A DNA stretch of 50,810 nucleotides from Nanobdellota archaeon (GCA_038046685.1 JBBSVT010000103.1:1-50810), one strand, 5' to 3'; positions 3,684 to 50,444 are shown, numbered from the stretch's first letter. The notes: generated by a model from the letters alone, not told the origin. Translations and numbers: made by a program.

Positions 3684-4700
3684 TTATTCTATATCTTTGA
3701 TTCCGGTTTCGTCTATGTAAAACGAAGATTCACCTTCTGGCATACTAGGCGAGTCAATCAATTTAGCTACTCTTGTTCCTTTCTTGCCTTTCCTCAAGTA
3801 AACCCTGAAAGTTGAGGCATGCGCCACAATATGGCCCCCTATTGGTTGAGTAGGATCACCAAAGAACATATCTGGCTTTGCCATAACCTGATTTGTCACA
3901 TAAACACACAAATTATGCATATCTGCCAATTTCAGCAATATGTGCATATGCTTGTTTAGCTTTTGCTGCCTATTTGCCAAGGTGCCTCTGCCTATAAATT
4001 CTGCCCTAAAGTGGGCTGTCAATGAATCAATGACAACGAGTTTTACGTTTAAGCCTTGTTTTTTTATTAAGTCTTCTATCTTTTCTGCCAACAGCATTTG
4101 ATGATCAGAGTTGTAAGCCCTTGCCACTTTAATGTTCTTTAAAACCTGCTCTTCGTCCAAGCCAGCCCCCTTGGATAATTGTATAATTCTTTCTGGCCTG
4201 AAAGTGTTCTCTGTATCGATGTAGACTGCAACTGCATCTTTATCAACAGATTGGCAGCTGACAGCCAATGCATGGCCAAGCTGCGTTTTTCCAGAGCCGA
4301 ATTCACCAAAACATTCTACAATTGCGCCTGTTTCCAAGCCGCCTCCAATCAATGAATCAAATGATTTGCTTCCTGTTTTTATTCTGATTACTTTTTCTCT
4401 TCTTCTCAGCAATTCTTCTCCTGACTCAAAGCCCATCTCAAGAGATTCCCTTGCAACTGCAATCATTTTCTTTGCAACTGCATCATTCATTCCAGTTGCT
4501 TCCACAAGTTCAGCTGGCGATGCTACAGCAACGCTCATTAAATCCGTATAGCCAACTGCAATAAGCTTTTCAGCAGTTGCTGCCCCTACTCCGGGTAAAT
4601 CATAGATTGTTTTCTCTTCTTTTTCCATCTTTATTTCGCGTCTTTTTCTTCTTGAATCTTTTGATTCAGAATTTTGTATTTCTATAGCTTCTTGTTCCAT
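3684..4700 (-). CDS. radA: DNA repair and recombination protein RadA
   Basis: N-terminal HhH (DLPGVG), Walker [35 protein letters not shown]. Start uncertain (4700 or 4628). Confidence 0.97.
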
Positions 4701-4744
4701 TATAATCACTTCCTTTTATATTTTTATTCATTTTAGAAAGAGGT

Positions 4745-5172: not shown

Positions 5173-5205
5173 AAATAGTATTAGCTATAGTAAGTTTATA
5201 TAGTT

Positions 5206-5229
5206 TGTCCAGCAATGTCCAGTGTCCAG
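5206..5229. promoter_or_regulatory. Three TGTCCAG direct repeats just upstream of the radA-operon TATA box
   Basis: Copies at 5206-5212, 5216-5222 and 5223-5229. Confidence 0.45.
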
Positions 5230-5262
5230 TGGTTATTTGCCATATGGAAAAGAAAAATATTG

Positions 5263-5428
5263 GTAGGAAAAGCTTGTTTAATATATTATGAAAAAAATTT
5301 CCTCCTTGGCGGTTCGACGGACAACTTTCCTCCTTGCTGAACTAAATTATAAAGTCGAAAAGCTTGTCCTACTCGCCAAAAATTTCTGCGGATTTTGATG
5401 TCTAATTGCTTAATCCTTGAAATTTTTG
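5263..5428. repeat. Two imperfect inverted-repeat structures upstream of the orphan cassette
   Basis: GTAGGAAAAGCTT (5263-5275) / AAGCTTGTCCTAC (5360-5372); CAAAAATTTC (5377-5386) / GAAATTTTTG (5419-5428) enclosing GGATT/AATCC. Confidence 0.55.
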
Positions 5429-5551
5429 TCTCACCGAACGCCACGGAGATTTTTTTCTTGAAGAAAAAGTAAAGGTTTAATCCTTGTTTGCCAAAATATT
5501 ACTCAGACGAATAACCAAAATTTGATATACTTTTATTAAAAAAGTCAATTT

Positions 5552-6193
5552 ATGCATCAAGAAAAATTTTATAGGCCAAAAAAGTTTGTTGGATTATCAT
5601 TAATTCTTTTAATTATACTAACAAATGTGATAACTTTTAATTGGTACACTAATCCTGAACATAGTAAAAGTAAATATTGCTTTTTTAGCAATTGTCTATT
5701 TCATTTCAAAGTAAACATTATTTTTGGTATAATCTTTATAATCATCACAATATTATGGAATAATACCATAGGTAAATGGCAACCTATCATAGAAATATTC
5801 AAAAATCAAGTTAGTTTTATTCCTCGAACTAAAGGTTCAAGCGAAATTACACTTTCAAATCAAGAATTGAAAAATATACAAATTATAAAAACAGGTATAC
5901 CCAAAATAATTGGTATAGAGTTTAAAGATATTGACAAAATTTCACAAGCAATGAGCGAAGCGACTACAAAAACTGATTTAATTTACAAGATTATACATTA
6001 TATATCATTTAAATTGAGAAAAATTCCAATTAAATTCTTACAGTTTAATGATAAAAAAGAAGATAAAATATACATCTTCAAAAATATTATGGAAATTAAT
6101 CATAAAAGAGGATATCATGTTTCTTTATGGAAAATATCCTATTCCAAACAATTTGATTCACTATATAATGATTTATCCAATTTAGTAAATTAA
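5552..6193 (+). CDS. Orphan membrane protein (two N-terminal TM segments)
   Basis: 213-aa ORF, very AT-rich, opposite strand to its neighbours, two hydrophobic stretches. Confidence 0.7.
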   Translation: MHQEKFYRPKKFVGLSLILLIILTNVITFNWYTNPEHSKSKYCFFSNCLFHFKVNIIFGIIFIIITILWNNTIGKWQPIIEIFKNQVSFIPRTKGSSEITLSNQELKNIQIIKTGIPKIIGIEFKDIDKISQAMSEATTKTDLIYKIIHYISFKLRKIPIKFLQFNDKKEDKIYIFKNIMEINHKRGYHVSLWKISYSKQFDSLYNDLSNLVN

Positions 6194-6344
6194 CTATTAT
6201 CTGACTTTGGTTTTTCGCCTGTATCACACCATCTTCCCCTACATAGCTCGGTTCGACAAACAAAAGTAAACCTCGTTTTTAGCTTTCTTCCTTTCGCATA
6301 AAGTGAGATTATATACGCATAGCCTTCGGAACTTTTCTTAGAAT

Positions 6345-6599
6345 TTATCTGTCATATATGCTGCCTCTGTGGCCTGCAACCCTAACAAATAGAACCTTAT
6401 TTTTGAAATCGATATCAATAAGCAACCTATAATCTCCAACCCTAAGCTTATAGAAATCCCTACCTTCATAATGCTCAAGATAATGGAAAGGATTTTCTTT
6501 TATCTCCTTGACTTTCAGAACAATTCTTGCCGATATATCATTCGGCAACTTGCGTAAATATTTCTTTAATTTAGGATCCCACTCAACAGAGTAACTCAT
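6345..6599 (-). CDS. relE: RelE/ParE-family type II toxin
   Basis: YSVEW...YKLRVGDYRLLIDID...GHR signature; ATGA overlap with the antitoxin. Confidence 0.9.
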   Translation of the reverse strand: MSYSVEWDPKLKKYLRKLPNDISARIVLKVKEIKENPFHYLEHYEGRDFYKLRVGDYRLLIDIDFKNKVLFVRVAGHRGSIYDR

Positions 6600-6799
6600 T
6601 GTAAGAATTCTTTTTCCATATCTTCTTGGCTGATGTACTCGGATCGAGGAGTTTTTCTAGCTTCTTCAAGTTGCCTTTTAGCTTCATTGCTAAGCTCAAA
6701 GTCCTCTGCCAGAGCGTGTTTTATAAACTTCATGTCCTTTTGAAGATCTTTCAACTCCTCGTGTATGGTCTTAAGTGATACAGATGTCATTTCATTCAC
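6596..6799 (-). CDS. Cognate antitoxin (archaeal RelB-like)
   Basis: Small acidic helical protein directly upstream of, and overlapping, relE; C-terminal EYISQEDMEKEF. Confidence 0.75.
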   Translation of the reverse strand: MNEMTSVSLKTIHEELKDLQKDMKFIKHALAEDFELSNEAKRQLEEARKTPRSEYISQEDMEKEFLQ

Positions 6800-6946: not shown

Positions 6947-7939
6947 CTATCCGTTCTGTAATCTCTTTAGTTCCTCTTCCGGATTAGGATTTATATCAAC
7001 ATAATTAACAATAAACTCCAACCTATTGAACAAAGAATTGTTGTTTACTTTGCCAGCTAATTTTGTAATAGTGCCCAGCAATTCATTTTTTACTGCTTCA
7101 AATTCTGCCGGCTCTTGCTTGAATTTCATAACCTGCTCCTGATTTAGTTTAAGCAGCCTCTCAACTTGATTCCTGAAGAAAACGCACCTTATTGTTTCTG
7201 TTCCATCGTCAAGAACTGCGTTAAGCACATAAGAGTAGCTCGGGATCACATTTCCATGCTCTGCGCACTCAAACAGATCAGCTGACGGCTTTGCCCTTTT
7301 GCCGCAGCGTGGGCATGTTTCGAAATACTTGATGTCGAAAACCTGCACAATTGTGCCTAGCAGTTCAGCCTCGCTGTCATTTTCATTTAAAGTCTTGATT
7401 TCTTTTCTATTTCCAGATTTGTCATTAACATAAACATCAGTTACAGTTACTCCTATCGGATTAATCAAAAGCTGGCTTCGGTCATTAAGATGAATTTCCT
7501 TTCTTCCATTATTGTCCCTGACATAAGCGCCTAAAATCTTGACAATATCGCCTTGTCTTATATTTGAGGTATTGTCAGCCTGAGAGCCCCATAACACAAC
7601 TCTTATTGTTCCAGTTTCGTCTCCAATCACAATAGAAGCAACCTTGCTTAAGGCATCGCCTCTCATAAATTCCTTTAAATCATAAACCTGTAAAATCTTT
7701 CCTATAGTTTCTACATCCCTCATTCCAGTTAAAATGTTCTTAATCTGCAGTTTTCCGCTTAACGGCTCAAAAATTTTTACTCCAAGTTCATTTGCAACGA
7801 TATGGGCTGCTCCTTCCTTGCTTATCAAGCCAGAAAGCTGTTTCATTTTCCTATCGATTCGTTCCTCTATCTCGGAAACGCTCATTTGGGTCTTTTCGAT
7901 TATCTTCAGAATTATCTCTTCATAAGGGATCTTTATCAT
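6947..7939 (-). CDS. rpa: Replication protein A, large-subunit-like (N-terminal helical domain, two OB folds, Zn finger)
   Basis: GLISKEGAAHIVANELG, GDETGTIRVVLW, CPRC...CAEH, LDDGTETIRCVFF. Confidence 0.88.
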   Translation of the reverse strand: MIKIPYEEIILKIIEKTQMSVSEIEERIDRKMKQLSGLISKEGAAHIVANELGVKIFEPLSGKLQIKNILTGMRDVETIGKILQVYDLKEFMRGDALSKVASIVIGDETGTIRVVLWGSQADNTSNIRQGDIVKILGAYVRDNNGRKEIHLNDRSQLLINPIGVTVTDVYVNDKSGNRKEIKTLNENDSEAELLGTIVQVFDIKYFETCPRCGKRAKPSADLFECAEHGNVIPSYSYVLNAVLDDGTETIRCVFFRNQVERLLKLNQEQVMKFKQEPAEFEAVKNELLGTITKLAGKVNNNSLFNRLEFIVNYVDINPNPEEELKRLQNG

Positions 7940-40677: not shown

Positions 40678-41520
40678 AATCGGAGTTACATAAATTTCCA
40701 GAAACGCCGCCGCAATAAGAAAGCCCACTGCAATTAAGATAAGCTCTGAGAAATCCTTCATGATAATAGAAAATTTGCTTGATTGGAAGTGTTTTCTTAT
40801 CAAGGCAACTGAAAGTATGCCTCCTGCAAGACCTCCGTAGAAATAAGCTGCAATCTCTGGAATGCCATGCAGAGAATATTTTAATAACCCTAGGGAAACT
40901 ATATGAAAATAATTGCCGATTTCTAGCAAATTGAGAGAACTTGTGTAATTGCTTATGTTTACCCGGATAAAATTTCCAATGGCTGCACCAATTACGGTTG
41001 CATTCCATGCCAAAATAAATATAGCTCCAGCCCCATAAATAAACGCCAATAGTGTTGAGAAGGCCAACACTTTAAAATTATTAAAAAATATTTTCTGGAA
41101 AATGCTTAAATTATTTGCAACATTTCCAGAAACCTGGTTATTGATGGCTTGTATTGTTCCTGTCTGTTTATCAAAAAGCTGGTTAATTGTAGATGTTGGG
41201 AGCATGACATACCATAAAGCGCTTGCAACCGTAATTCCCACAAACATATACATAAAAAATGTAATTGCTTTATTATGCTCCTTAAAGATTAAAGATTCAT
41301 TATCAATCAGCATATCCTTACTTTCTTCTAATTTAATAGTATTATAAAAAATAGGCAAAGCAGCCATTGTTATCATAAATACCATAATTAAGCTTGCTTG
41401 ATCCCTAAAAATCCATAAGGAAATGACAACGCTAATAGATGCATAAATAAAACCAAGAAAAAATGTTTCCCATGGCTTTTTCTCAGCTTTTAAAGGGTAC
41501 AATAGGGATTCTATTACCAT
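40669..41520 (-). CDS. SpoIIM (stage II sporulation protein M)-family membrane protein
   Basis: IFFNN, HGIPEI, AAFLEIYVTP; multi-TM. Confidence 0.85.
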   Translation of the reverse strand: MVIESLLYPLKAEKKPWETFFLGFIYASISVVISLWIFRDQASLIMVFMITMAALPIFYNTIKLEESKDMLIDNESLIFKEHNKAITFFMYMFVGITVASALWYVMLPTSTINQLFDKQTGTIQAINNQVSGNVANNLSIFQKIFFNNFKVLAFSTLLAFIYGAGAIFILAWNATVIGAAIGNFIRVNISNYTSSLNLLEIGNYFHIVSLGLLKYSLHGIPEIAAYFYGGLAGGILSVALIRKHFQSSKFSIIMKDFSELILIAVGFLIAAAFLEIYVTPILF

Positions 41521-41570
41521 ACTTTTTTACTTAGGTGCTTTATTTATATACTTTTTGAAAAGAAATCGTA

Positions 41571-42605
41571 TTAGGGATTGTTGAGTATTTCATTAGCAAG
41601 TCTTCTGGCAAGGTATTTCCCTATTATTTCATGTCCTTTTTTATTTGGATGCCACGGATCATACCAATTAGTTGGATTTTGTTTTATTTCTGAAGATTTA
41701 TATTTTGAAAATTCTTCTAGTAAGTCGTAGGCGATTAGCCCATCAGCGGTTGCCACACTAACCAATTTTTGATGATAAATCTTTAATGAGTAGTTATTAA
41801 ACCCCGATTTTAGAAATGTCGGGTGTATTAGGAATATTATCTTTGTGTTTTTTTCTTTTGAAATTTTACCTATTTCCCCTATGTTTGACTTTATATTTGG
41901 CCAGTAAACGCAATGCAGGAAATAGTCAGGGTCGAGGTTACATTCTCTTGAGTTTAACTTTTCCTTGATAAAGAAAAGTTTCATCGAAACATAATTTGTA
42001 AAATAGGATTTTGGTTTAAAAAAATAGCGGCCTGCCTCATTATTCGCATTATGGTAAAGGGGGTGCGCAGGATCATTAAGCACGTAGCTCCAGATTATAA
42101 GGTCGGGATTATATTTAAAAGCCTCTTTCTTCAGAATCGTCAATTCTTGGACTGTGGAATATCCGCCTCGGGCTAGGATAACTGTTTCAAATCTCCAGCT
42201 CCTCAATTGTTTGTTTAGGCTATCCTCAAGTATTTTTCCGAAGGATTCTCTATAGGATTCAAGACCTGAACCTTGGGCAACAGAGTCTCCGATTATCACT
42301 ATCCTGAATGTACCGTTGCTTTTTGAAAAATTATGGTCTTCATCAAAATACCCATTTGAGTTCATTCCGCATCGATTTGGTTTAAATTCGTATATAAGTG
42401 TTGAATCACTTGAGGAAGTCTCGCACATTTCCCTTTCCTTGTATTTCAAGTTCATGAATTCGTGATATTTGCGGTCTTTAGCCCCAAGAAAGATTTCAAA
42501 AGAAGTGACAATTATTAAACTTGTGACTAGAACTGTAGTCAACAGCAACGCCAATTCTTTGTATTTTTTAATATAAAACGATTTGATAAATTCATCTATT
42601 TTCAT
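41571..42605 (-). CDS. Membrane-anchored SGNH/GDSL hydrolase-family protein
   Basis: N-terminal TM, IGDS, LND, DPWHPN..GH. Confidence 0.82.
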   Translation of the reverse strand: MKIDEFIKSFYIKKYKELALLLTTVLVTSLIIVTSFEIFLGAKDRKYHEFMNLKYKEREMCETSSSDSTLIYEFKPNRCGMNSNGYFDEDHNFSKSNGTFRIVIIGDSVAQGSGLESYRESFGKILEDSLNKQLRSWRFETVILARGGYSTVQELTILKKEAFKYNPDLIIWSYVLNDPAHPLYHNANNEAGRYFFKPKSYFTNYVSMKLFFIKEKLNSRECNLDPDYFLHCVYWPNIKSNIGEIGKISKEKNTKIIFLIHPTFLKSGFNNYSLKIYHQKLVSVATADGLIAYDLLEEFSKYKSSEIKQNPTNWYDPWHPNKKGHEIIGKYLARRLANEILNNP

Positions 42606-42720
42606 GAGTTTTCTTAGCGTTTATTATTAAATTATTTCAAGATGCATTCAGGTTAAGGATACTGCAAATATGGAAGAGGTGATGATTAAATTTATAAATT
42701 AGGCTTTTTTCTTGCTTAAT

Positions 42721-43134
42721 ATGGAAGACTACAAGAAAATGCTCGAAGCGGTGAGAATGAACCTTCCAGAAGCTGTTTTCCTTAAAGAGAGGTTCGAGAT
42801 ACCTAAAGCCCTTGGGCATATTCAAGGCAATAGAACGATAATTAGTAATTTTCTCCAGATTGCCTCAAACTTGAGAAGGGAGGTTAACCATTTGCTTAAG
42901 TATGTTCTAAAGGAATTGGCTACCCCCGGCGAGATTAAAAAGAGCGGCGCTTTAATTCTTGGCACAAAAGTACCTGCTTCAAGGATAAACGAGAAGATTA
43001 GGCAGTATGCGCATGAATTTGTGCTTTGCCTTGAATGCGGCAAGCCCGACACAAAAATAGAAAAAGAAGGCGAATTAACCTACATGAAGTGCACTGCGTG
43101 CGGTGTAAAGAATTTCGTCAAGGCGAAGATTTAG
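42721..43134 (+). CDS. eif2b: Translation initiation factor 2 subunit beta
   Basis: ERFEIP, LKELATPG, C..CGKPDT...C..CG Zn finger. Confidence 0.95.
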   Translation: MEDYKKMLEAVRMNLPEAVFLKERFEIPKALGHIQGNRTIISNFLQIASNLRREVNHLLKYVLKELATPGEIKKSGALILGTKVPASRINEKIRQYAHEFVLCLECGKPDTKIEKEGELTYMKCTACGVKNFVKAKI

Positions 43135-43307
43135 CAATGTCCTTTTTTCTTTTGAAAATTTTGCTTTAACTTATAAATTTACTATTAAACGCAATTGAAA
43201 CTGAGTTTAATAGTTGTTCTACGCAATTATTACTCAGGGTCACTCTAAATTATTGATAGGGCAAGAAATCAATATATTTTTAAAGATGTGAATACTCTAT
43301 TAACCAA

Positions 43308-43868
43308 ATGAACCAAAAAAATATTTATCTCATAGTTACAATCTCTTTAATTCTTGTTATAGTAATAGGATATATAATTTTTTATAATCCTTATCCTAAA
43401 GAGATTGATGTCGAATATGGAGGTAATATTCCAAAAGGAACATTTAAGGCAGTTATAGGTGATGAATAAATATTTACCAATGGTCCTGATGTAGTAAGTG
43501 TTACCATTTATGAAAAATATGGAGTGATGAAAGACTTCTGCACATACTATGATTCCTCCAACGAGTATTTTTGCCCATTTAGATTAGGAATCAAAATCAG
43601 CGATTCTTCAGCAGAAAAACAAGCACAAATAACTTCTAATCTTGAAGTTATAAAAGAAGATGATTTGGAATATCTTTCAAATAATTTAATTTTGTATCTT
43701 AACGGCGAAAAACTTGACGAATTAAGAATTTCTGCTGAATTAAAAGGAATTGTAAATAAAGACCTTCAAATTTCTGGCTCTGGAAAAGGAAAATCAAAAA
43801 GAGATGCTGTTAATGATGCTAAGAAAAGACACGATAAATTAGTAAATATTTTTTTGGATATTAGATGA
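43308..43868 (+). pseudogene. Membrane-anchored protein resembling an archaeal SecD extracellular domain, with an in-frame stop
   Basis: ATG at 43308 encodes an N-terminal TM; TAA at 43467-43469; the frame continues into the ORF at 43524 (LYLNG..LDELRI...LKG...QISGSG.G...A..DA). Confidence 0.55.
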
Positions 43869-43996
43869 TTTCTTGCGCTTACTCTTATTCTTTTATTGTG
43901 TTCCGCACTTGATACGAGTGCCCCTTCCGTCATAACTTCCCTCGCCCCACTTCGTAGGCTCGGTGCGTAGAACAGGCATGCCGATGTTAAATACAA

Positions 43997-44145
43997 TAAT
44001 TTTGAGAGGTGAACGTAATTTGGGACAATTTTAACTTAATGTTTTAACTAAGAGGGGCTTCGCCTTTGATGAATTAAAATTGTCCCCTTAATCCTAGTTT
44101 CTAATTGCTCACTTTGTTCGCTTGATAAAATACCTCTCAAAATTA
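43997..44145. repeat. ~150-bp nested inverted repeat (long hairpin)
   Basis: 14-bp perfect arms 43997-44010/44132-44145; 13-bp perfect arms 44022-44034/44074-44086; apical GGGC-TTC-GCCT. Confidence 0.8.
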
Positions 44146-44224
44146 CTTTTCGGAACGCAATTTCCCAGAACTTGCGTAACTGGCGGAGAATATAACATAC
44201 GATCATGTATGTTAAGTTCAATAT

Positions 44225-47200
44225 TTATCCAAACCATCTGTTCAATCCTTCCTGCTTGTCTTTCTCTCTTCCAAAAACCCCTTCAACCCTATTTTTTGTT
44301 AACTCCAAAGTTTGTCTAAGATAGGCAGGAAGCCCATATTTCTCTGATAAGGAGATCGCCGGCTCTAAATATTTGATGATTGTGCCCTCTGAAACAGTGA
44401 ATATTAATCTGCTGTCGCATGCCAAACATCTTCCTGTTAAAGGTGGCCTGCGGTACTTTTCGGTGCATTTGCTGCACCTAAATTGCTGCATGGAAAATTT
44501 TCTTAAATTCCCCTTTATATCTCTTAATAAGTGTTTTTCTATAACCAATCTGGCAACATCCGCTGCATCTACAGCTCTTATTTTATCTGCTAGCTCCATT
44601 TGTCCTTTTAATTTGTCTTCCATTGAAGGTAGTGTCTTGTACGAAGAGCACTTAATACCCATGTTGATATTGGTCAGTGGATGTGTATAATGTATTGCCG
44701 AGTAGTCATTTTCAGAATTTAGTATATTTGCAAATCTTTGTATATTCACGTTCCACGGAAGCTCGTATTTTTGTGTTGATTCATAAAATTCTATTGGATA
44801 GTTTTTGACTACATCCAAATCAAACACCATATCATCAACTTCTGTTGGAACCAGTATTGAAGTTATAACTAAAGGTGCGTCTTGTGTTGCTCCTCGCGAA
44901 TTTGGAAGGAATTGTCTTGAGAAATTTAGAAGCGCGTCCATCAGTAAAGTAACCGATGCTTCATCTCCATCACAATCCCTTCTTGTTGCTGCATGAAATA
45001 AAGGATGGGCATACAATACCTGTGTTTTAGAAAATCCAATTATCCTGCCTACAATGCCGGCTGACGTATGCGGTGCCAATGCAACAACAAGGTGCCCCAC
45101 TAGGTCTTGTCCGGATTGCAAATTATAAAATTCTTTCAGGCCGTATAATGAAACTAGCAGCTCATCAATAAACCTGCTTAGATTATAAAGAATCTTGTCA
45201 GCGCCAGATTCAGGCGCATCTTCACATTTTGGTAAGATAATGTCTTGCGGATTCAATTCTAAGATTTGCTCCTCACCTGCCAATTCTGATCCGTGAATAT
45301 CTTTGGTATAGCCCAGTCTCCTCAATTCTTCCACTGAAGTTCCAATCTCTTTCGGATTGAAATGCGTGATTGGCAGCTGCGTCATATCATATCTAGTAGT
45401 GCCATCTCTGTTGACTGGCAGCTCATGTTTTGCCCTTAAGATTCCTTTTGCAGGGTGCTCCGGAACATGATTTTTGTTTGAGGTACCTCTAACACCTTTT
45501 ATCAGATCTGGGTATTGTTGCATGCCTAGTTTTTTTAATATTCTCTTAAAGTAATGGTTGATATCGATGTTCTGCAATTTATAGCTGTTTGTGTTTCCAT
45601 GTTTGCATTTTGTGTCTTCAGTTAGTCCGCATGAGCTGCAATGCCTCATTTTTTTTGTTTTATTGTCGCATTGTTCACATACACTTAGTATTGTCTCTTT
45701 TTTACAATGCTCACAAAAATATATCGGGAATTCTGCTGCTATATGCCCTGATTCCATTGCGTTTTGAAATGACCTTAATTTACCTCCCTGTTTCCCTATA
45801 GGAAATAGTGTATGTGGCTCGCCATCGAGCTTCCGCACTTTTGCCTTCTCCGGTCTACCCATTCTTGCACCGACAAAAATCCCTGATTTGTCCCTGATTT
45901 TTATCACTGAAAATAGATTTAATATGTCTAGAACATCCTCCGTCTGAGAATTTTTATATTGCTCGCAAAAATTCTTTTCGTCAAGTTTTAATAGAGAATT
46001 TAATATTTCTGCATCATCCCGTCCTATTATCACTGACTCATTATTAACATAAATATGCGGCACCCCAAGAAGCTCCAGGACTCTTTTACCCACTTCATCT
46101 TTTGGAAGAATAATCTTACTGATGTCACTTCCATTAAATTCTATTTTTGCCTTAAGGAACCAATCAACTAACACAAGAAATTCCTCCCTTGAAATAGTTT
46201 TCCAATGGTAAGTGAAATAAGGATGTAAGGGGACAGAAAGGGCTTTGCTTAATGTTATTGCTATTTTTGCTGTCGGTTTCTCAAAAAAAAAATTTTTGAC
46301 TGAGTTCTCTAGATTGACTTCCTCGAGGCCAGTTATTTCTGAGAGTTTGTGGAAGTCTAAAAAACCAAATCTGGCTACCATTTCTTTTTCAACTTCAAGC
46401 GACCACCATTCTTCACAATACCCAGCAGGTGGCAAAGTGTGTGCCCTGTTAAAGAAATCCCCATAACTGATTAGTATATCACCCAAAAATAAAATTTCCT
46501 TGGTAGATCCAACTACCTGTTTTGCTGTATATTCAGTATCCACTTTAATAACACTTCCATTATCCAATTTTACTATAGGTCCATCTATGGAGTCACATAC
46601 ACTCACAGCTGTTGCCTTCCCGGGCCTTTCTATCTTCAGTTGGGTGCCTATTGCAATGTATTTGTTAAGAATTATCATAGTAGCCGGATGTATTGCTGAT
46701 GCCGAATATCCTGACGTCCTACATCTTCCGTAACGCAAACGAAATCCTCCAACAGCAAGCGGGTGCGTCAGAACTGGTCTGCCGGCTACGAGGTCCTGAA
46801 TATATGTGTAAATTGGGGCTATTCCTTTTCTTACAATTTTTTCTTTTGCCTTCGTTTCCTTTTGCAATTGCGTGAACTCTTGCAAAAATAACCAATTCTC
46901 AAGACCAAACTCTTTGGCCCATTTTTTAAGTTGTGGCCATATTTTGGCAGCTTTTTGCGCCACACATTCCCCAAGAACTAAACACGGTCCGCTCCTTATC
47001 CCATTGGTTTCTATTCTTTCCAGGTCTTTATAATTAGAAACTTCTATATCTTCAGATGCATCACCATCAATCTGAACCGGTAAGTTGCTAACCAGAAACC
47101 TTATTTCTCTTTCTGTTGGCAAGTATTGAAGATTGGTGATTCTTTCATGATAATCATAAAGCTCTGTGACCATCCTCCTTATTTCCTTCTCTGAAGGATC

Positions 47201-47734
47201 ATAAGCGTCATATCCTAAATTTTTCCTTATGTAATCTGCGATAATAACGCTTAGGGCGCCTGCAGTTCCTCCAGCGCTTCTTATAGGCCCAGAATACATT
47301 AGAGAGAAATATTCTTTACCATCCAGCCTTTTTCCCAGTTTTAAGCCGACAAAACCTTCTAATGGTGATGACACAACACCAAGGGTTAAATAAGCCAAAC
47401 CCACCCTTATTCCTGTTTCAATCGCGTCTTTTTGTGTTTCGAAACTACAAAATTTTTGCTGGGTAGTTTCTATGGATATTTTAAGTGCAACTCTCCAATC
47501 CAGTTTTCCATAAATGCTTTCAAGTTCCTTTATTCTTTTCGGGATTCCTTTATGTAGTATTTGTGGGACTGCCACACTTATCAAGCCTTCTACTCGCTCT
47601 GTCATATTTTTGGCTAGAGGTATATTCACTTTTTCCTCAGGGTCATAACCTTTTGACCTTGCCAAATTTGCGACTTGATAAGAGGCGTCTGTCTTTGCAA
47701 GAATATCGTTCATGTAATTACCTTCATTTCTCAT
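44225..47734 (-). CDS. polC: DNA polymerase D large subunit (DP2)
   Basis: GPIRSAGGT, GGFRLRYGR, RMGRPEKA, CDGDE catalytic motif, C-terminal Zn finger; no intein. Confidence 0.97.
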   Translation of the reverse strand: MRNEGNYMNDILAKTDASYQVANLARSKGYDPEEKVNIPLAKNMTERVEGLISVAVPQILHKGIPKRIKELESIYGKLDWRVALKISIETTQQKFCSFETQKDAIETGIRVGLAYLTLGVVSSPLEGFVGLKLGKRLDGKEYFSLMYSGPIRSAGGTAGALSVIIADYIRKNLGYDAYDPSEKEIRRMVTELYDYHERITNLQYLPTEREIRFLVSNLPVQIDGDASEDIEVSNYKDLERIETNGIRSGPCLVLGECVAQKAAKIWPQLKKWAKEFGLENWLFLQEFTQLQKETKAKEKIVRKGIAPIYTYIQDLVAGRPVLTHPLAVGGFRLRYGRCRTSGYSASAIHPATMIILNKYIAIGTQLKIERPGKATAVSVCDSIDGPIVKLDNGSVIKVDTEYTAKQVVGSTKEILFLGDILISYGDFFNRAHTLPPAGYCEEWWSLEVEKEMVARFGFLDFHKLSEITGLEEVNLENSVKNFFFEKPTAKIAITLSKALSVPLHPYFTYHWKTISREEFLVLVDWFLKAKIEFNGSDISKIILPKDEVGKRVLELLGVPHIYVNNESVIIGRDDAEILNSLLKLDEKNFCEQYKNSQTEDVLDILNLFSVIKIRDKSGIFVGARMGRPEKAKVRKLDGEPHTLFPIGKQGGKLRSFQNAMESGHIAAEFPIYFCEHCKKETILSVCEQCDNKTKKMRHCSSCGLTEDTKCKHGNTNSYKLQNIDINHYFKRILKKLGMQQYPDLIKGVRGTSNKNHVPEHPAKGILRAKHELPVNRDGTTRYDMTQLPITHFNPKEIGTSVEELRRLGYTKDIHGSELAGEEQILELNPQDIILPKCEDAPESGADKILYNLSRFIDELLVSLYGLKEFYNLQSGQDLVGHLVVALAPHTSAGIVGRIIGFSKTQVLYAHPLFHAATRRDCDGDEASVTLLMDALLNFSRQFLPNSRGATQDAPLVITSILVPTEVDDMVFDLDVVKNYPIEFYESTQKYELPWNVNIQRFANILNSENDYSAIHYTHPLTNINMGIKCSSYKTLPSMEDKLKGQMELADKIRAVDAADVARLVIEKHLLRDIKGNLRKFSMQQFRCSKCTEKYRRPPLTGRCLACDSRLIFTVSEGTIIKYLEPAISLSEKYGLPAYLRQTLELTKNRVEGVFGREKDKQEGLNRWFG

Positions 47735-47735
47735 T

Positions 47736-49235
47736 TTACTGTCCAAATTTCAATATTTTTATATCTCTCGTCTGCAAATTCACTATTGGAACTCTGCTGG
47801 GTTCTGGATTATGTCCTACTTTCTCTTGAAAAATTGTTTTGCTCTGCCAACAGCTCCCGCATATCAATGTTGTATTGCGATAATTTGCCGTTGCGGTTTT
47901 ATGTATATGGCCGCTAAGGAAAAAGTCAGGGACAATTTCAATGGTTAACGGATCTTTTTTTGTATCTGGAATGTACAGTGTAGATAAATGTGAGGGTGCC
48001 AGATGCCTCCTTTTCAATAAAAACTTCATTATTAAATCTGCCCTGCTGTATCCTCCTTTGTTTCTTAATGTATCAACCTCTGCAACAAAATAATCAAAAG
48101 AATAGCCATGGTACATCAAAACATCAAACCCTAAAAAGTTGTTTGATGATTGGATATTAATTAAAGAGGGATTTGAGACCATAAGTACATTATTCAGCTC
48201 ATATAATGGCTTTGCAAAATTTTTTGATAATGGTGGCTGTGGTTCGGAAATACGCAAAGCGTCATGGTTTCCGGGGCAGATAATCAATGGTATGTGCTGC
48301 GGTATTTGTTTAATAAGATTTGCACATTCTTTATATTGTTGATAAATATCCTTTGTTGTTAGTTCCTTATCCTGTTCTGGGTAAATACCACATCCATCCA
48401 CCAAGTCTCCTGCTATGAATATATATTCTATATTTTTTGCTATATGTTTTTGTTGTTCATTTCCAAGGTCACCATTCACCCATTTAAGAAATTTCTCAAA
48501 ATCTTCAGGTAAAAATTTTGAGGAACCTACATGCAAGTCTGACAAAAATAATGCATATTTTTCTTGTTCTGATTTTTTCAGCTCTCTATTTGTCGGTGTA
48601 TCTGGCCAAAGAATGCTGTTTGCGAATATAAAATCACCCACATTTACTCCGACAACACCAATAACTTCATCCAACACTATATCCTTCGCATCATTAAATA
48701 AACTAGGCTTATTTTTATTTACCAGCACTTTTTTTTGTCCCGTCGGGTCTTCAAGAATTAAAAGCAAGTTGCCGTTTTTTGTTGTTTGTTTATTATTAAC
48801 CATCCCTATTATAGCCAAGTTTTCCTTTTCCTCTTTGTTGAATATTTTATTCATTGAAACTGTATTTTTCAGCTCCTGCCTTCCCTTCAAAATTTTTTCT
48901 ATTGATTTATACCTATTGTTAAAATAATCTACAAAGTCTTGCGGTTCTCTCTTCTTTGGTTCATCGTTGTAAGAATAAATTATTTTTATTTTAGGAGGCA
49001 GTTTTTGCTCTTTTTGTGTTGCCTCTTCCAGAATGTTTCTCGCATTGACCAGTTTGCTAATGTCGATATCGATGACGGGTGCATCATTATGCTTCTGTGA
49101 TTTTAGCGAGTCAAATATTTCAGAAAGTTGTTCGTGGTTATTAATCTTGCTTAATAGCTCTGAGCTTATTAAAACCTTGTTTTTTAAAAGAATGTCAACA
49201 AATTCGCGTTTTTTTTTAAATATTTCTTGTTGCAT
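47736..49235 (-). CDS. polB: DNA polymerase D small subunit (DP1, proofreading)
   Basis: OB fold (LEDPTG); SDLHVGS, GDLVDG, PGNHD, YHG, HLAP and GHIH phosphoesterase motifs. Confidence 0.96.
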   Translation of the reverse strand: MQQEIFKKKREFVDILLKNKVLISSELLSKINNHEQLSEIFDSLKSQKHNDAPVIDIDISKLVNARNILEEATQKEQKLPPKIKIIYSYNDEPKKREPQDFVDYFNNRYKSIEKILKGRQELKNTVSMNKIFNKEEKENLAIIGMVNNKQTTKNGNLLLILEDPTGQKKVLVNKNKPSLFNDAKDIVLDEVIGVVGVNVGDFIFANSILWPDTPTNRELKKSEQEKYALFLSDLHVGSSKFLPEDFEKFLKWVNGDLGNEQQKHIAKNIEYIFIAGDLVDGCGIYPEQDKELTTKDIYQQYKECANLIKQIPQHIPLIICPGNHDALRISEPQPPLSKNFAKPLYELNNVLMVSNPSLINIQSSNNFLGFDVLMYHGYSFDYFVAEVDTLRNKGGYSRADLIMKFLLKRRHLAPSHLSTLYIPDTKKDPLTIEIVPDFFLSGHIHKTATANYRNTTLICGSCWQSKTIFQEKVGHNPEPSRVPIVNLQTRDIKILKFGQ

Positions 49236-50444
49236 TTAAATACAGATACTCCTTTCCAGAATGTTTTTTACCCTTGGTAATGTTGACTGTGAGATTTCCA
49301 CCGATATGTTCCTTGTTCTTCCGTATCTTCCTTTTGATATCACTTTGGCATTTACAATTCCGAGCATATCGAATTCTGAGATTATATCAGAAACCCTTCT
49401 TTGTGTTAATACGCTTGTGTTTGTCTTGCTGCATAATGACCCGTATACCTCATACACTTCTCCAGTAAATATTGTGCTTCTTTTTTCAGACGATAAGGAA
49501 AGTATTGAGTAAAGCACAAGCTGGTACTGCTTAGGTTGTGTTGCAACCACATCAACTATCCTGTCCCTGTCTATTTTTTCTTCGGCTTCATCAATATCCG
49601 CAATAGTTATTTTTTTGGTATTTTTTCTGTCTGCAACCTCGCCAGCAACCCTCAATAGCTCAAGCGCCCTTCTAGCATCACCATGGTCGCGAGCAGCATA
49701 AGCTGCACATTTCTCTATAACCCCGTGCTCCAAGACATCTTTGTTGAATGCTAATTCTGCCCTCTGTTTTAAAATAGATTGAATCTGTAAGGCATTGTAG
49801 GGTGGAAAAACAATTTCCTCCTCAGAAAGGGAAGATTTTACTCTTGGGTCCAGATTGTCAACAAAAAGAACGTCGTTTGATATACCTATTATCGTCAACT
49901 GTTGTTCTGTGCCACCTTCATTAATCCTTGTTAGATTATAAAGCACATTGTCGCCAGTCTTACTAACCAGTTGGTCAATTTCATCTAATATAATTATATA
50001 ATTCTGCTTGTATTTGTTGATGGCTTTGAGAAAAGCCTTGTACACCTCTTCTGTTGGCAAACCTGTGGGGGGAATTGGTTTGCCCAATTCAGCTGCTAAT
50101 TGTGCAATTAATCTGTATTCTGTATCTGCGCTCCTCTTTAGTTTACAATTCACATATAATACCTTTAATGGTATTTCTTTCTTTTCTGCTACCTCCATTA
50201 GTTTTTTTGTTGTGTATTTGATGGTAAGGGTCTTCCCTGTTCCAGTTTTACCATACACAAAAAGATTGGATGGTTTATCTCCTTTTAAGGATGAGGAAAG
50301 TATATTGGCTATCTGTTTTGTTTGGTCTTCCCTGTGTAGGATTGTTTCGGGCGTATAGCCTGATTGAAGCATGCTTTTATCAAAAAAGAGGCTGTCTTTA
50401 CCGATAGATTCATCAAAAAACGCTTCTAATTCCTTTTCAGCCAT
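49236..50444 (-). CDS. cdc6: Orc1/Cdc6 replication initiator
   Basis: YGKTGTGKT, ILDEID, DPRVKSSL, GDARRAL, SKGRYGRT winged helix. ATG at 50444 preferred. Confidence 0.97.
   Translation of the reverse strand: MAEKELEAFFDESIGKDSLFFDKSMLQSGYTPETILHREDQTKQIANILSSSLKGDKPSNLFVYGKTGTGKTLTIKYTTKKLMEVAEKKEIPLKVLYVNCKLKRSADTEYRLIAQLAAELGKPIPPTGLPTEEVYKAFLKAINKYKQNYIIILDEIDQLVSKTGDNVLYNLTRINEGGTEQQLTIIGISNDVLFVDNLDPRVKSSLSEEEIVFPPYNALQIQSILKQRAELAFNKDVLEHGVIEKCAAYAARDHGDARRALELLRVAGEVADRKNTKKITIADIDEAEEKIDRDRIVDVVATQPKQYQLVLYSILSLSSEKRSTIFTGEVYEVYGSLCSKTNTSVLTQRRVSDIISEFDMLGIVNAKVISKGRYGRTRNISVEISQSTLPRVKNILERSICI

Follow-up and report, generated by a model that had tools for sequence, protein, structure and literature searches.

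Introduction

Among described systems that exchange genes as discrete units, the dif modules of Acinetobacter plasmids come closest to the elements reported here, and integrons are closest in layout. According to the part of the Acinetobacter work drawn on here (PMC6449649), dif modules are units of about 0.8–3 kb that hold one or a few genes between inverted Xer-type boundaries; the same module occurs in different contexts, toxin-antitoxin pairs lie among or beside the modules and no recombinase gene is located inside them. We describe two gene-bearing segments, cassette 1 and cassette 2, in a 50,810-nucleotide stretch of DNA from a Nanobdellota archaeon (JBBSVT010000103.1 of assembly GCA_038046685.1, hereafter the window), which is contig C103, one of 119 contigs in a 1.68-Mb draft genome (36% G+C, 88% complete). 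With moderate confidence, cassette 1 (about positions 5473–6273) can be regarded as an eroded copy, probably no longer mobile, from a family of gene modules of 0.8 to about 2 kb, present in one Woesearchaeota-like DPANN genus. The link of this family is to the tyrosine recombinase XerA and not to the IntI/attC machinery of integrons.

Integrative mobile elements exploiting Xer (IMEX) make use of Xer recombination at dif; the CTX phage, for example, does so via a folded single-stranded hairpin site. The known archaeal dif consists of two 11-nt arms and a 6-nt spacer and is stated to be single-copy in the part of a review considered here; in Thermococcales, within the material consulted, dif sites are not next to xerA. 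Archaeal integrons, in the sections used of their description by Ghaly et al. 2022 (PMC9668308), have attC sites with bacterial-type folding and an IntI that includes the extra domain specific to IntI. In the literature searched, no paper on Xer-linked gene modules in archaea was found, and within that literature the system appears undescribed for archaea.

A dyad element at the left end, in part adjoining xerA

BLAST of the 5' flank of cassette 2 against related genomes, combined with alignment, shows that GTTTAATAGTTGTT forms the right arm of a conserved, approximately 85-nt element. The core of this element (about 40 bp) reads TAACA-N-CTATTAAAC-(N)GCA, ATTAAAAC, TGC-GTTTAATAG-T-TGTTA, forming a dyad with arms of about 13 nt around the asymmetric 8-nt centre ATTAAAAC. 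R1, a sequence-only model of the element with 89 positions, matches 33 of the 43 genomes of the genus, with one to four matches in each. The host genome contains two strong dyads, one after the SRP54 gene (contig C7) and one after the aIF2beta gene (contig C103, cassette 2). Dyads that do not adjoin xerA are located just after SRP54, after aIF2beta (five genomes) and after HIT-like, endonuclease-IV-like, EF2-like or RelE genes, the last four named by eye. Weaker dyad copies, or right halves, follow aIF2beta in four genomes besides the host. A small membrane open reading frame (ORF) begins 58–97 nt past the dyad element on the same strand in six loci.

The xerA gene adjoins the dyad in 7 of 30 fetched copies, including six of the nine best-scoring. 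These seven dyads lie about 70 nt upstream of a tyrosine recombinase gene, the product of which has 260–280 amino acids, matches the archaeal XerA model best and is 72–86% identical across many assemblies; near relatives of this recombinase carry the source labels Candidatus Woesearchaeota or Nanoarchaeota. Four adjoining or candidate recombinases, 262–314 residues long, have NF040815 XerA_Arch as best match, with 143–207 bits (the lowest is a half-gene, the others reach 197–207). Against the integron integrase model TIGR02249 the same proteins score 117–189 bits (171–189 for those at 197–207 bits against XerA_Arch), below the cut-off of 265, with the match split in two stretches, and tyrosine-type DNA invertase models are matched weakly (53–68 bits).

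A right-end signature element

The 3' motif of the cassettes, GCTCGG..AACA, makes up the core of an approximately 90-nt signature, and a model of it (R2) matches 25 of the 43 genus genomes. The G+C-rich stretch before GCTCGGTGCG in cassette 2 has kin in the host genome after carB (contig C104), partially on contig C80, and in other genomes. The signature consensus starts with an A-run and CTTTGC, followed by a short hairpin with a variable loop and by CCAC-RTTGCAY-TCTCGCTTCGCTCGGGG; then come a variable block ending in AACA, a short G+C palindrome that differs by copy and a GTTAAATGCAAT-like site. A profile built from other genomes finds four signature copies in the host genome, including that of cassette 2 (E 3.6e-8 with the host copies excluded from the profile) and not including cassette 1. 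Signatures also form same-strand arrays: G022:C36 has three of them inside 3 kb, next to a split XerA-like gene, and pairs are present in G049, G001 and G012.

No common fold is predicted for the signature: RNAalifold gives 0 pairs for 20 copies. Local folds of the 3' regions are unremarkable, with z-scores of +0.30, -0.54, +0.81 and +0.18, so that the statement in a preliminary description of this DNA that no complete attC hairpin is evident holds. Known RNA families (Rfam) give nothing above threshold in either cassette region, and inspection by eye alone revealed no bulge-helix-bulge splice motif, hammerhead-like core or IS200/IS605-like end hairpin. A tRNA or split-tRNA origin of the GGTTCGA-like motif was rejected, ARAGORN finding 0 genes in the window, and so was a coding reading of the signature, as the frames differ between copies (by eye). 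We dropped the idea of a diversity-generating retroelement, given proteins that do not resemble lectins and a G+C-rich element located past the stop codon; this was decided with no reverse-transcriptase search.

Paired ends and modules in different contexts

In 10 places a dyad has a signature downstream of it on the same strand, at a distance of up to 3 kb, where about 0.1–0.2 would be expected by chance, as estimated from match densities. The variable block that precedes AACA is an inverted copy of the sequence just after the right arm of the dyad, and between modules the two vary in concert (cassette 2, G050, G009 and G055; Table 1), which is the covariation of ends that the preliminary description had named as a check. 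Inside the ends there are further nested inverted pairs of 10–14 nt, of a sequence that differs per module. An inverted partner with a score of at least 24 is present up to 1.4 kb upstream of 13 of 22 signature copies, versus 3 of 22 in a downstream control.

The modules of G047 and G055 are identical at 811 of 857 aligned positions (94.6%), the gene at 97.5%, while identity drops to 43% in the 100 nt beyond each end. On the left, the block they share starts at the AAAAC of the dyad centre; on the right, it ends inside the signature. In G055 the module directly adjoins xerA and a full dyad, while in G047 it is accompanied by an antitoxin-RelE pair and a DRG-like GTPase gene (named by eye) and has the right half-dyad only, as has cassette 1. 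At the same RelE-DRG locus, G046 contains a full dyad element, a different membrane ORF of 105 residues and a signature. As with Xer-dependent dif modules, one module thus stands in different contexts with sharp edges.

Each module has one or a few genes, mostly for small membrane or secreted proteins that belong to no known family; other modules contain a SecD fragment or an EamA-type transporter-like protein, or have toxin-antitoxin pairs alongside. An A/T-rich, TATA-like stretch is located shortly 5' of the ATG in each module (by eye). Most cassette copies are dispersed singly, and so are the two in the window; an array-like layout is seen in G022:C36 and G055 (xerA, dyad, module, signature). 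In G012:C106 (L119, minus strand, about 1280–1400 of the reversed locus), a G+C-rich stretch with the long inverted repeat AACAACAATAATGGCG..CGCCATTGTTGTT takes the place where a gene is expected, with a degenerate dyad on one side and a signature on the other; this cassette may carry a structured RNA.

The loci that hold the two cassettes of the window are both hot spots. The RPA-p98 gap, with cassette 1, measures from about 255 to 1905 nt among relatives and is empty or differently filled there. The aIF2beta-PolD gap, with cassette 2, could be measured in 22 of 30 fetched loci, where it spans 18 to 1359 nt and holds unrelated sequences (no PolD was inside the fetched flank in the other eight); it is as short as 18, 25, 33 and 72 nt in four relatives.

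Sharp module edges would also be seen if the modules were non-autonomous transposons with cargo, similar to miniature inverted-repeat transposable elements, with a transposase encoded elsewhere and a preference for the neighbourhood of Xer-type dyads. Gene-flanking inverted repeats of loose consensus (GGGGCACACTC on the left, GAGTGTGCCCC on the right) agree with this, and insertion sequences that target dif and pdif sites have been described, in the part of the source used (PMC10132070). We consider such transposons unlikely here, as the left edge shared by G047 and G055 lies within the dyad centre and not beside the dyad, and the conserved asymmetric 90-nt signature has no left-end counterpart. 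By eye, the ends lack direct target-site duplications, bar a 13-nt direct repeat GTTAAATGCAATT around the module of G009:C54, and the runs of T and of A that lie beyond the arms are inverted as well. The loci read yielded no transposase gene, although no systematic search was made.

The repeats could, alternatively, be sites of DNA inversion at which a tyrosine-type invertase brings about phase variation of small surface proteins. Occurrence of the same module at different loci is left unexplained by inversion, and the contigs of four sequencing runs show a single orientation. Although the modules are promoter-plus-gene units flanked by inverted sites, and the recombinases do weakly resemble the invertase models mentioned above, this makes inversion highly improbable.

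Cassette 2

The gene of cassette 2, located between a complete dyad element and a signature, had been described as an unrelated orphan. In fact it joins a membrane helix to a copy of SecD's periplasmic part: it can be aligned to residues 253–396 of the host SecD (identified via PF02355) with 35% identity (E 4e-26). This likeness crosses an in-frame TAA, and the gene is therefore a decaying gene fragment and not an orphan. It is matched in 287 of 301 genomes of the order, in a tally that takes in seven unpublished genomes, of which no sequence is used here. Between cassette 2 and polD (43995–44144) we observed two nested perfect inverted repeats, one of 14 nt (43997–44010/44132–44145) and one of 13 nt (44022–44034/44074–44086). 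This region has fold z-scores of -3.6 on the plus and -5.0 on the minus strand and no Rfam matches; other contigs of the same metagenomes match 44104–44153 with different flanks, and this segment is therefore a repeated element of the community.

When the inverted complementarity between the 5' and 3' flanks of each gene is scored by chained alignment, cassette 2 tops all 1397 genes (41.5 versus a maximum of 37.9). This raises the question of whether the flanks act as RNA, in which case their pairing, as a panhandle or as a processing stem of the kind found around archaeal rRNAs, would stabilise, process or circularise the message, and the ends would be regulatory modules spread by duplication and homologous recombination. 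The complementarity survives two-sided changes in homologous modules, and a conserved promoter-like element (5193–5232) is directed into the cassette 1 region, both of which suit such a role. However, the TATA-like stretches seen by eye near each ATG would put the 5' arms upstream of the message start, the signature has no predicted consensus fold, no bulge-helix-bulge motif was seen by eye, and neither the sharp edges in the dyad centre nor the adjacency of xerA is explained. A function at the RNA level is thus quite unlikely. The runs listed for the cassette 2 region include no RNA run.

Cassette 1

The protein encoded by cassette 1 has no matches in Pfam or NCBIfam, and in a word-based search of 5.8 billion clustered proteins it matches itself only. 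The preliminary description called the gene an orphan; it belongs to no known family, but a full HMMER scan reveals seven distant relatives. The best of these is the gene of the G055 module, with 33% identity over 186 residues (E 3e-23). Within the genus the gene family is limited to 3 of 43 genomes, each time at a different locus; in a sample of 401 genomes of the order it is present in the host alone (1/401), the 400 others lacking it. Because its protein is homologous to that of the G055 module, which itself is 94.6% like the G047 module, cassette 1 is probably an eroded member of a real cassette family, an old copy that is probably no longer mobile.

The left end of cassette 1 is consistent with this. 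Its 5' stretch, GTTTAAT..TTGTTT.CCAAAATATTACTC (from the 5473 region through TATTACTCAG), agrees with the 5' flank of the G055 module at 28 of 33 positions, counted by hand, and when that flank is used as nhmmer query the left end of cassette 1 ranks third in the genome, after two true dyads (E 0.92). Judged by these alignments, the 5' motif corresponds to the right half of the dyad; in the alignment with the dyad copies, cassette 1 has no left arm. At the other end, the 3' flanks of cassette 1 and the G055 module have a GCTCGG..AAACA core in common. A signature profile from 26 copies of other genomes does not detect the 3' end of cassette 1 at E <= 10, so only the core GCTCGG..AACA survives there. 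An A/T-rich TATA-like stretch can be seen by eye just 5' of the cassette 1 ATG (about 5530–5543).

The strings quoted in the preliminary description are all present where it placed them, and AGGTTTA-N6-GTTTG at 5473–5490 with an inverted copy at 6257–6273 is unexpected within the window (two matches versus 0.07 expected; 0 of 100 shuffles gave two). The complementarity of about 22 bp that it reported comes down to a 7-bp block and a block of 8 of 9 positions, with unequal spacers, to which an inner pair with 19 of 24 positions can be added (5504–5527/6198–6221). The sequence of this inner pair differs from that in the G055 module, each being complementary within its own module. In the chained score, 15 of the 1397 genes equal or exceed cassette 1, which places it in the top 1%.

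It had further been claimed that the same boundary motifs flank cassette 2. TATTACTCAG is indeed found again at 43228–43237, and GCTCGGTTCG (6246–6255) has a counterpart, GCTCGGTGCG, at 43958–43967. On the genome alone the likeness is not above chance. Alignment of the two 5' flanks scores 29 versus 19.0 ± 2.5 for shuffles (about four standard deviations above), but that of the 3' flanks scores 15 versus 16.1 ± 2.3, no better than shuffles. Paired-flank BLAST with colinear spacing, genome-wide, finds 8 real loci and 6 loci in a reversed-genome null that reach the 40.4 bits of cassette 1; an exact 10-mer plus 7-mer pair in common with the cassette 2 flanks occurs at 654 real and 653 null loci; and with single cassette 2 flanks as nhmmer queries, cassette 1 is absent from the 573 and 114 matches. 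Two copies in one window are therefore an insufficient statistical basis by themselves, and the likeness of the cassettes becomes significant only once relatives are added. Without relatives, the unusual property is that the two flanks of each gene are complementary as inverted sequences. The four exact copies of TATTACTCAG in the 1.68-Mb genome are near the expectation from base composition; the dyad and signature recur across the genus as given above. The earlier observation was thus real but not significant as given, and its interpretation was right in kind (mobile cassettes linked to a tyrosine recombinase) but wrong in family.

If the likeness of cassette 1 to the modules were fortuitous, its flanks would be ordinary archaeal promoter and terminator sequences in A+T-rich DNA and its gene a vertically inherited, fast-evolving orphan. 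The chance-level paired-flank result, the 3' end missed by an independent profile and the 15 genes with an equal or higher complementarity score would all be expected in that case. We nevertheless judge it very unlikely, since the homology to the G055/G047 module gene, the 5' flank in common, the presence of the gene in only 3 of 43 genomes at three loci and the empty or differently filled locus of relatives all speak against it; the protein homology and the comparison of the G047 and G055 modules have already largely refuted it.

Proposed mechanism

XerA-type site-specific recombination is suggested because a dyad with an asymmetric centre is located by a recombinase gene, module edges fall in that centre and cassettes are replaced at fixed loci. 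From this we infer an enzyme, a circular intermediate and a role for the inverted repeats. Excision and insertion of modules would involve two crossovers, one located in the dyad centre and a second within the signature or immediately behind it, and the candidate catalyst, on the strength of its gene adjoining the dyad in 7 of 30 copies, is a XerA-type recombinase. In the circularised module, the 3' and 5' flanks would join as one long imperfect hairpin presenting the site, in which the signature may form an asymmetric bulge, with the crossover near the apex. Folded single-strand sites are known from integrons and from a Xer-exploiting phage. Tentatively, one may picture a DPANN genus that runs cassette exchange by means of its housekeeping XerA, using a half-dyad, a 90-nt signature and a split palindrome that folds after excision, and in which the dyads at the 3' ends of housekeeping genes serve as docks for swapped genes of small surface proteins.

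Several points weigh against these proposals. Membership of cassette 1 in the family is carried mainly by protein homology, its 3' end escaping the profile at the E-value limit given above and its 5' end reaching only E 0.92. The enzyme is adjacent to a minority of the dyads (only 7 of 30). The host ortholog of the dyad-linked xerA has an internal deletion, encodes 124 residues and has no adjoining dyad (contig C13, L020 1420–1794), and a second XerA-like gene of the host, at the end of contig C91 (L019 1462–2406), is 47–50% identical to the gene of relatives. The right-hand crossover could not be located exactly: G047 and G055 part from each other within the signature, and homologous recombination between signatures is equally possible. 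At the right end, between about 4 and 13 nt separate the inverted half-sites, which does not resemble the fixed 6–8-bp core of a recombinase. No excision product, empty-site joint or circular junction was seen; in Logan contigs of runs X1, X4, X7 and X8 over 41000–46000, cassette 2 is contiguous without joints, assembled contigs dropping rare variants, so the check for circular junctions named in the preliminary description came back negative for the assembled contigs of these four runs. Finally, genomes of a single genus are non-independent samples.

Comparison with known systems

The modules described here resemble the dif modules of Acinetobacter plasmids in their size, in holding one or a few genes between inverted Xer-type sequences, in recurring in different contexts, in having toxin-antitoxin pairs among or beside them and in containing no dedicated recombinase gene. 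Unlike the dif modules, they are chromosomal and occur in an archaeon with a single XerA-type enzyme. Their left dyad is approximately 13-8-13 instead of 11-6-11, and their right end is an asymmetric 90-nt signature instead of a second canonical site; canonical inverse Xer sites (11-nt arms, 6-nt spacer) are thus not present at both ends. Long nested inverted repeats inside the ends and complete dyads next to xerA are further differences. The dyad is also distinct from the known archaeal dif, being longer, multi-copy and often linked to xerA: a chromosomal dif is single-copy and 11-6-11, while here there are one to four copies per genome (approximate, the genomes being draft metagenome-assembled genomes) with longer arms and spacer.

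Integrons have a recombinase gene divergent from its site, followed by promoter-less or self-promoted single-gene cassettes that end in an element of conserved architecture and variable sequence, and this layout is partly resembled by G055 and G022:C36; in both systems, the products of many cassettes are small membrane or secreted proteins with no known function. The kinship to integrons that the preliminary description proposed does not hold, however. The search for IntI or Xer genes that it called for yields XerA-type recombinases, which fall below the integron-integrase cut-off; a self-contained attC hairpin is absent (local folds, RNAalifold, Rfam) and the complementary halves are located on opposite sides of the gene. 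What stands of the proposal of dispersed single-gene cassettes mobilised by a tyrosine recombinase are the discrete cassettes, their conserved boundaries and different contexts, and a left edge in a recombinase-adjacent dyad. With IMEX elements the modules share a location next to a Xer site, the lack of an integrase of their own and, possibly, a site made by folding of inverted segments. Those elements are phages or islands of several kb in bacteria, whereas the modules are archaeal, contain single genes, have a conserved right-end signature and are known from sequence alone.

Genomic context and further features

Coordinates of the features in the window are listed in Table 1. The host genome is Woesearchaeota-like and was obtained from groundwater; the runs holding its DNA are groundwater metagenomes. 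A RelE-type toxin gene and its partner share the variable gap with cassette 1, and RelE-type pairs also abut dyad elements or signatures in G046, in G047 and on host contig C78.

Table 1. Features of the two cassettes and their surroundings, and inverted end pairs of four modules
Feature	Position	Strand	Description
RadA	3684-4709	minus	
Cassette 1 left boundary	5473-5492	+	Apparent remnant of the right half of the XerA-associated dyad (GGTTTAAT..TTGTT), continuing into the 5' arm of the outer inverted repeat (TTGTTTGCC)
TATTACTCAG	5497-5506	+	Local form of the conserved 5' module ATTACTCGGG(G)CACAC that opens cassettes in relatives
Inner inverted repeat, 5' arm	5504-5527	+	Pairs with 6198-6221 at 19/24 positions
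Cassette 1 gene	5552-6193	+	213 aa, predicted N-terminal membrane helices, family-less
Inner inverted repeat, 3' arm	6198-6221	+	From inverted-pair search and chained alignment
Eroded right-end signature	6235-6273	+	CTTCCCC..AGCTCGGTTCGACAAACA, then TAAACCT
Outer inverted repeats, 3' arms	6255-6263 and 6267-6273	+	Inside the eroded right-end signature
ParE/RelE-type toxin gene and small upstream partner	6345-6799	minus	PF05016, E 1.6e-9; same variable gap as cassette 1
RPA-like protein	6947-7939	minus	
aIF2beta	42712-43134	plus	
Cassette 2 complete dyad element	43149-43231	+	R1 model, 70.2 bits; directly after the aIF2beta stop codon
Cassette 2 dyad arms	43181-43218	+	
Cassette 2 tail TGTTCTACGCA	43215-43225	+	5' arm of a perfect 11-nt inverted repeat
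Cassette 2 gene	43308-43868	+	Membrane helix and SecD-related fragment; one frame, TAA at 43467-43469
Cassette 2 right-end signature	43920-43998	+	R2 model, 53.1 bits; includes GCTCGGTGCG
Cassette 2 3' arm TGCGTAGAACA	43964-43974	+	Followed by GGCATGCC and GTTAAATACAAT
DNA polymerase D large subunit (polD)	44225-47746	minus	
Inverted end pair, cassette 2			TGTTCTACGCA / TGCGTAGAACA
Inverted end pair, G050			TGTTATACGC / GCGTATAACA
Inverted end pair, G009			TGTTAAATGC / GCATTTAACA
Inverted end pair, G055			TGTTTTCCAA / TCGGAAAACA

Upstream of cassette 1, at 5193–5232 (+), a TATA-like box GTTTATATA is followed about 22 nt on by ATGTCCAGTGTCCAGTG, which holds a tandem GTCCAGT. The host genome contains four exact copies of this motif and two with one or two changes, all preceded by a TATA-like box. 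The motif is kept upstream of a 98-aa gene in the relatives read, also adjoins the split recombinase gene of G022:C36 and, in the window, is directed into the variable region containing cassette 1; possible readings are a regulated promoter and a small-RNA start. At 5295–5336, a direct repeat TTTCCTCCTTG is present on both sides of GCGGTTCGACGGACAAC, which resembles GGTTCGACAAAC of the cassette 1 3' end (15-nt match, 87%); this may be a leftover of another signature or of a junction. A match to the histone 3' untranslated region stem-loop (RF00032) at 49998–50042 (-), with 34.4 bits against a gathering score of 34, is almost certainly spurious in an archaeon.

Biological implications

DPANN archaea have small genomes with many strain-specific small membrane proteins, which are thought to mediate host contact. 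If the proposed system is real, Xer-linked cassettes would provide a concrete and testable mechanism for the turnover of the genes for these proteins. With it, the range of Xer-dependent modules would reach beyond Acinetobacter plasmids to the chromosomes of archaea; the system would be an archaeal counterpart of integrons and dif modules and would represent a second route to integron-like gene capture, independent of IntI and attC. The R1 dyad and R2 signature models are directly usable for mapping such cassettes in metagenomes.

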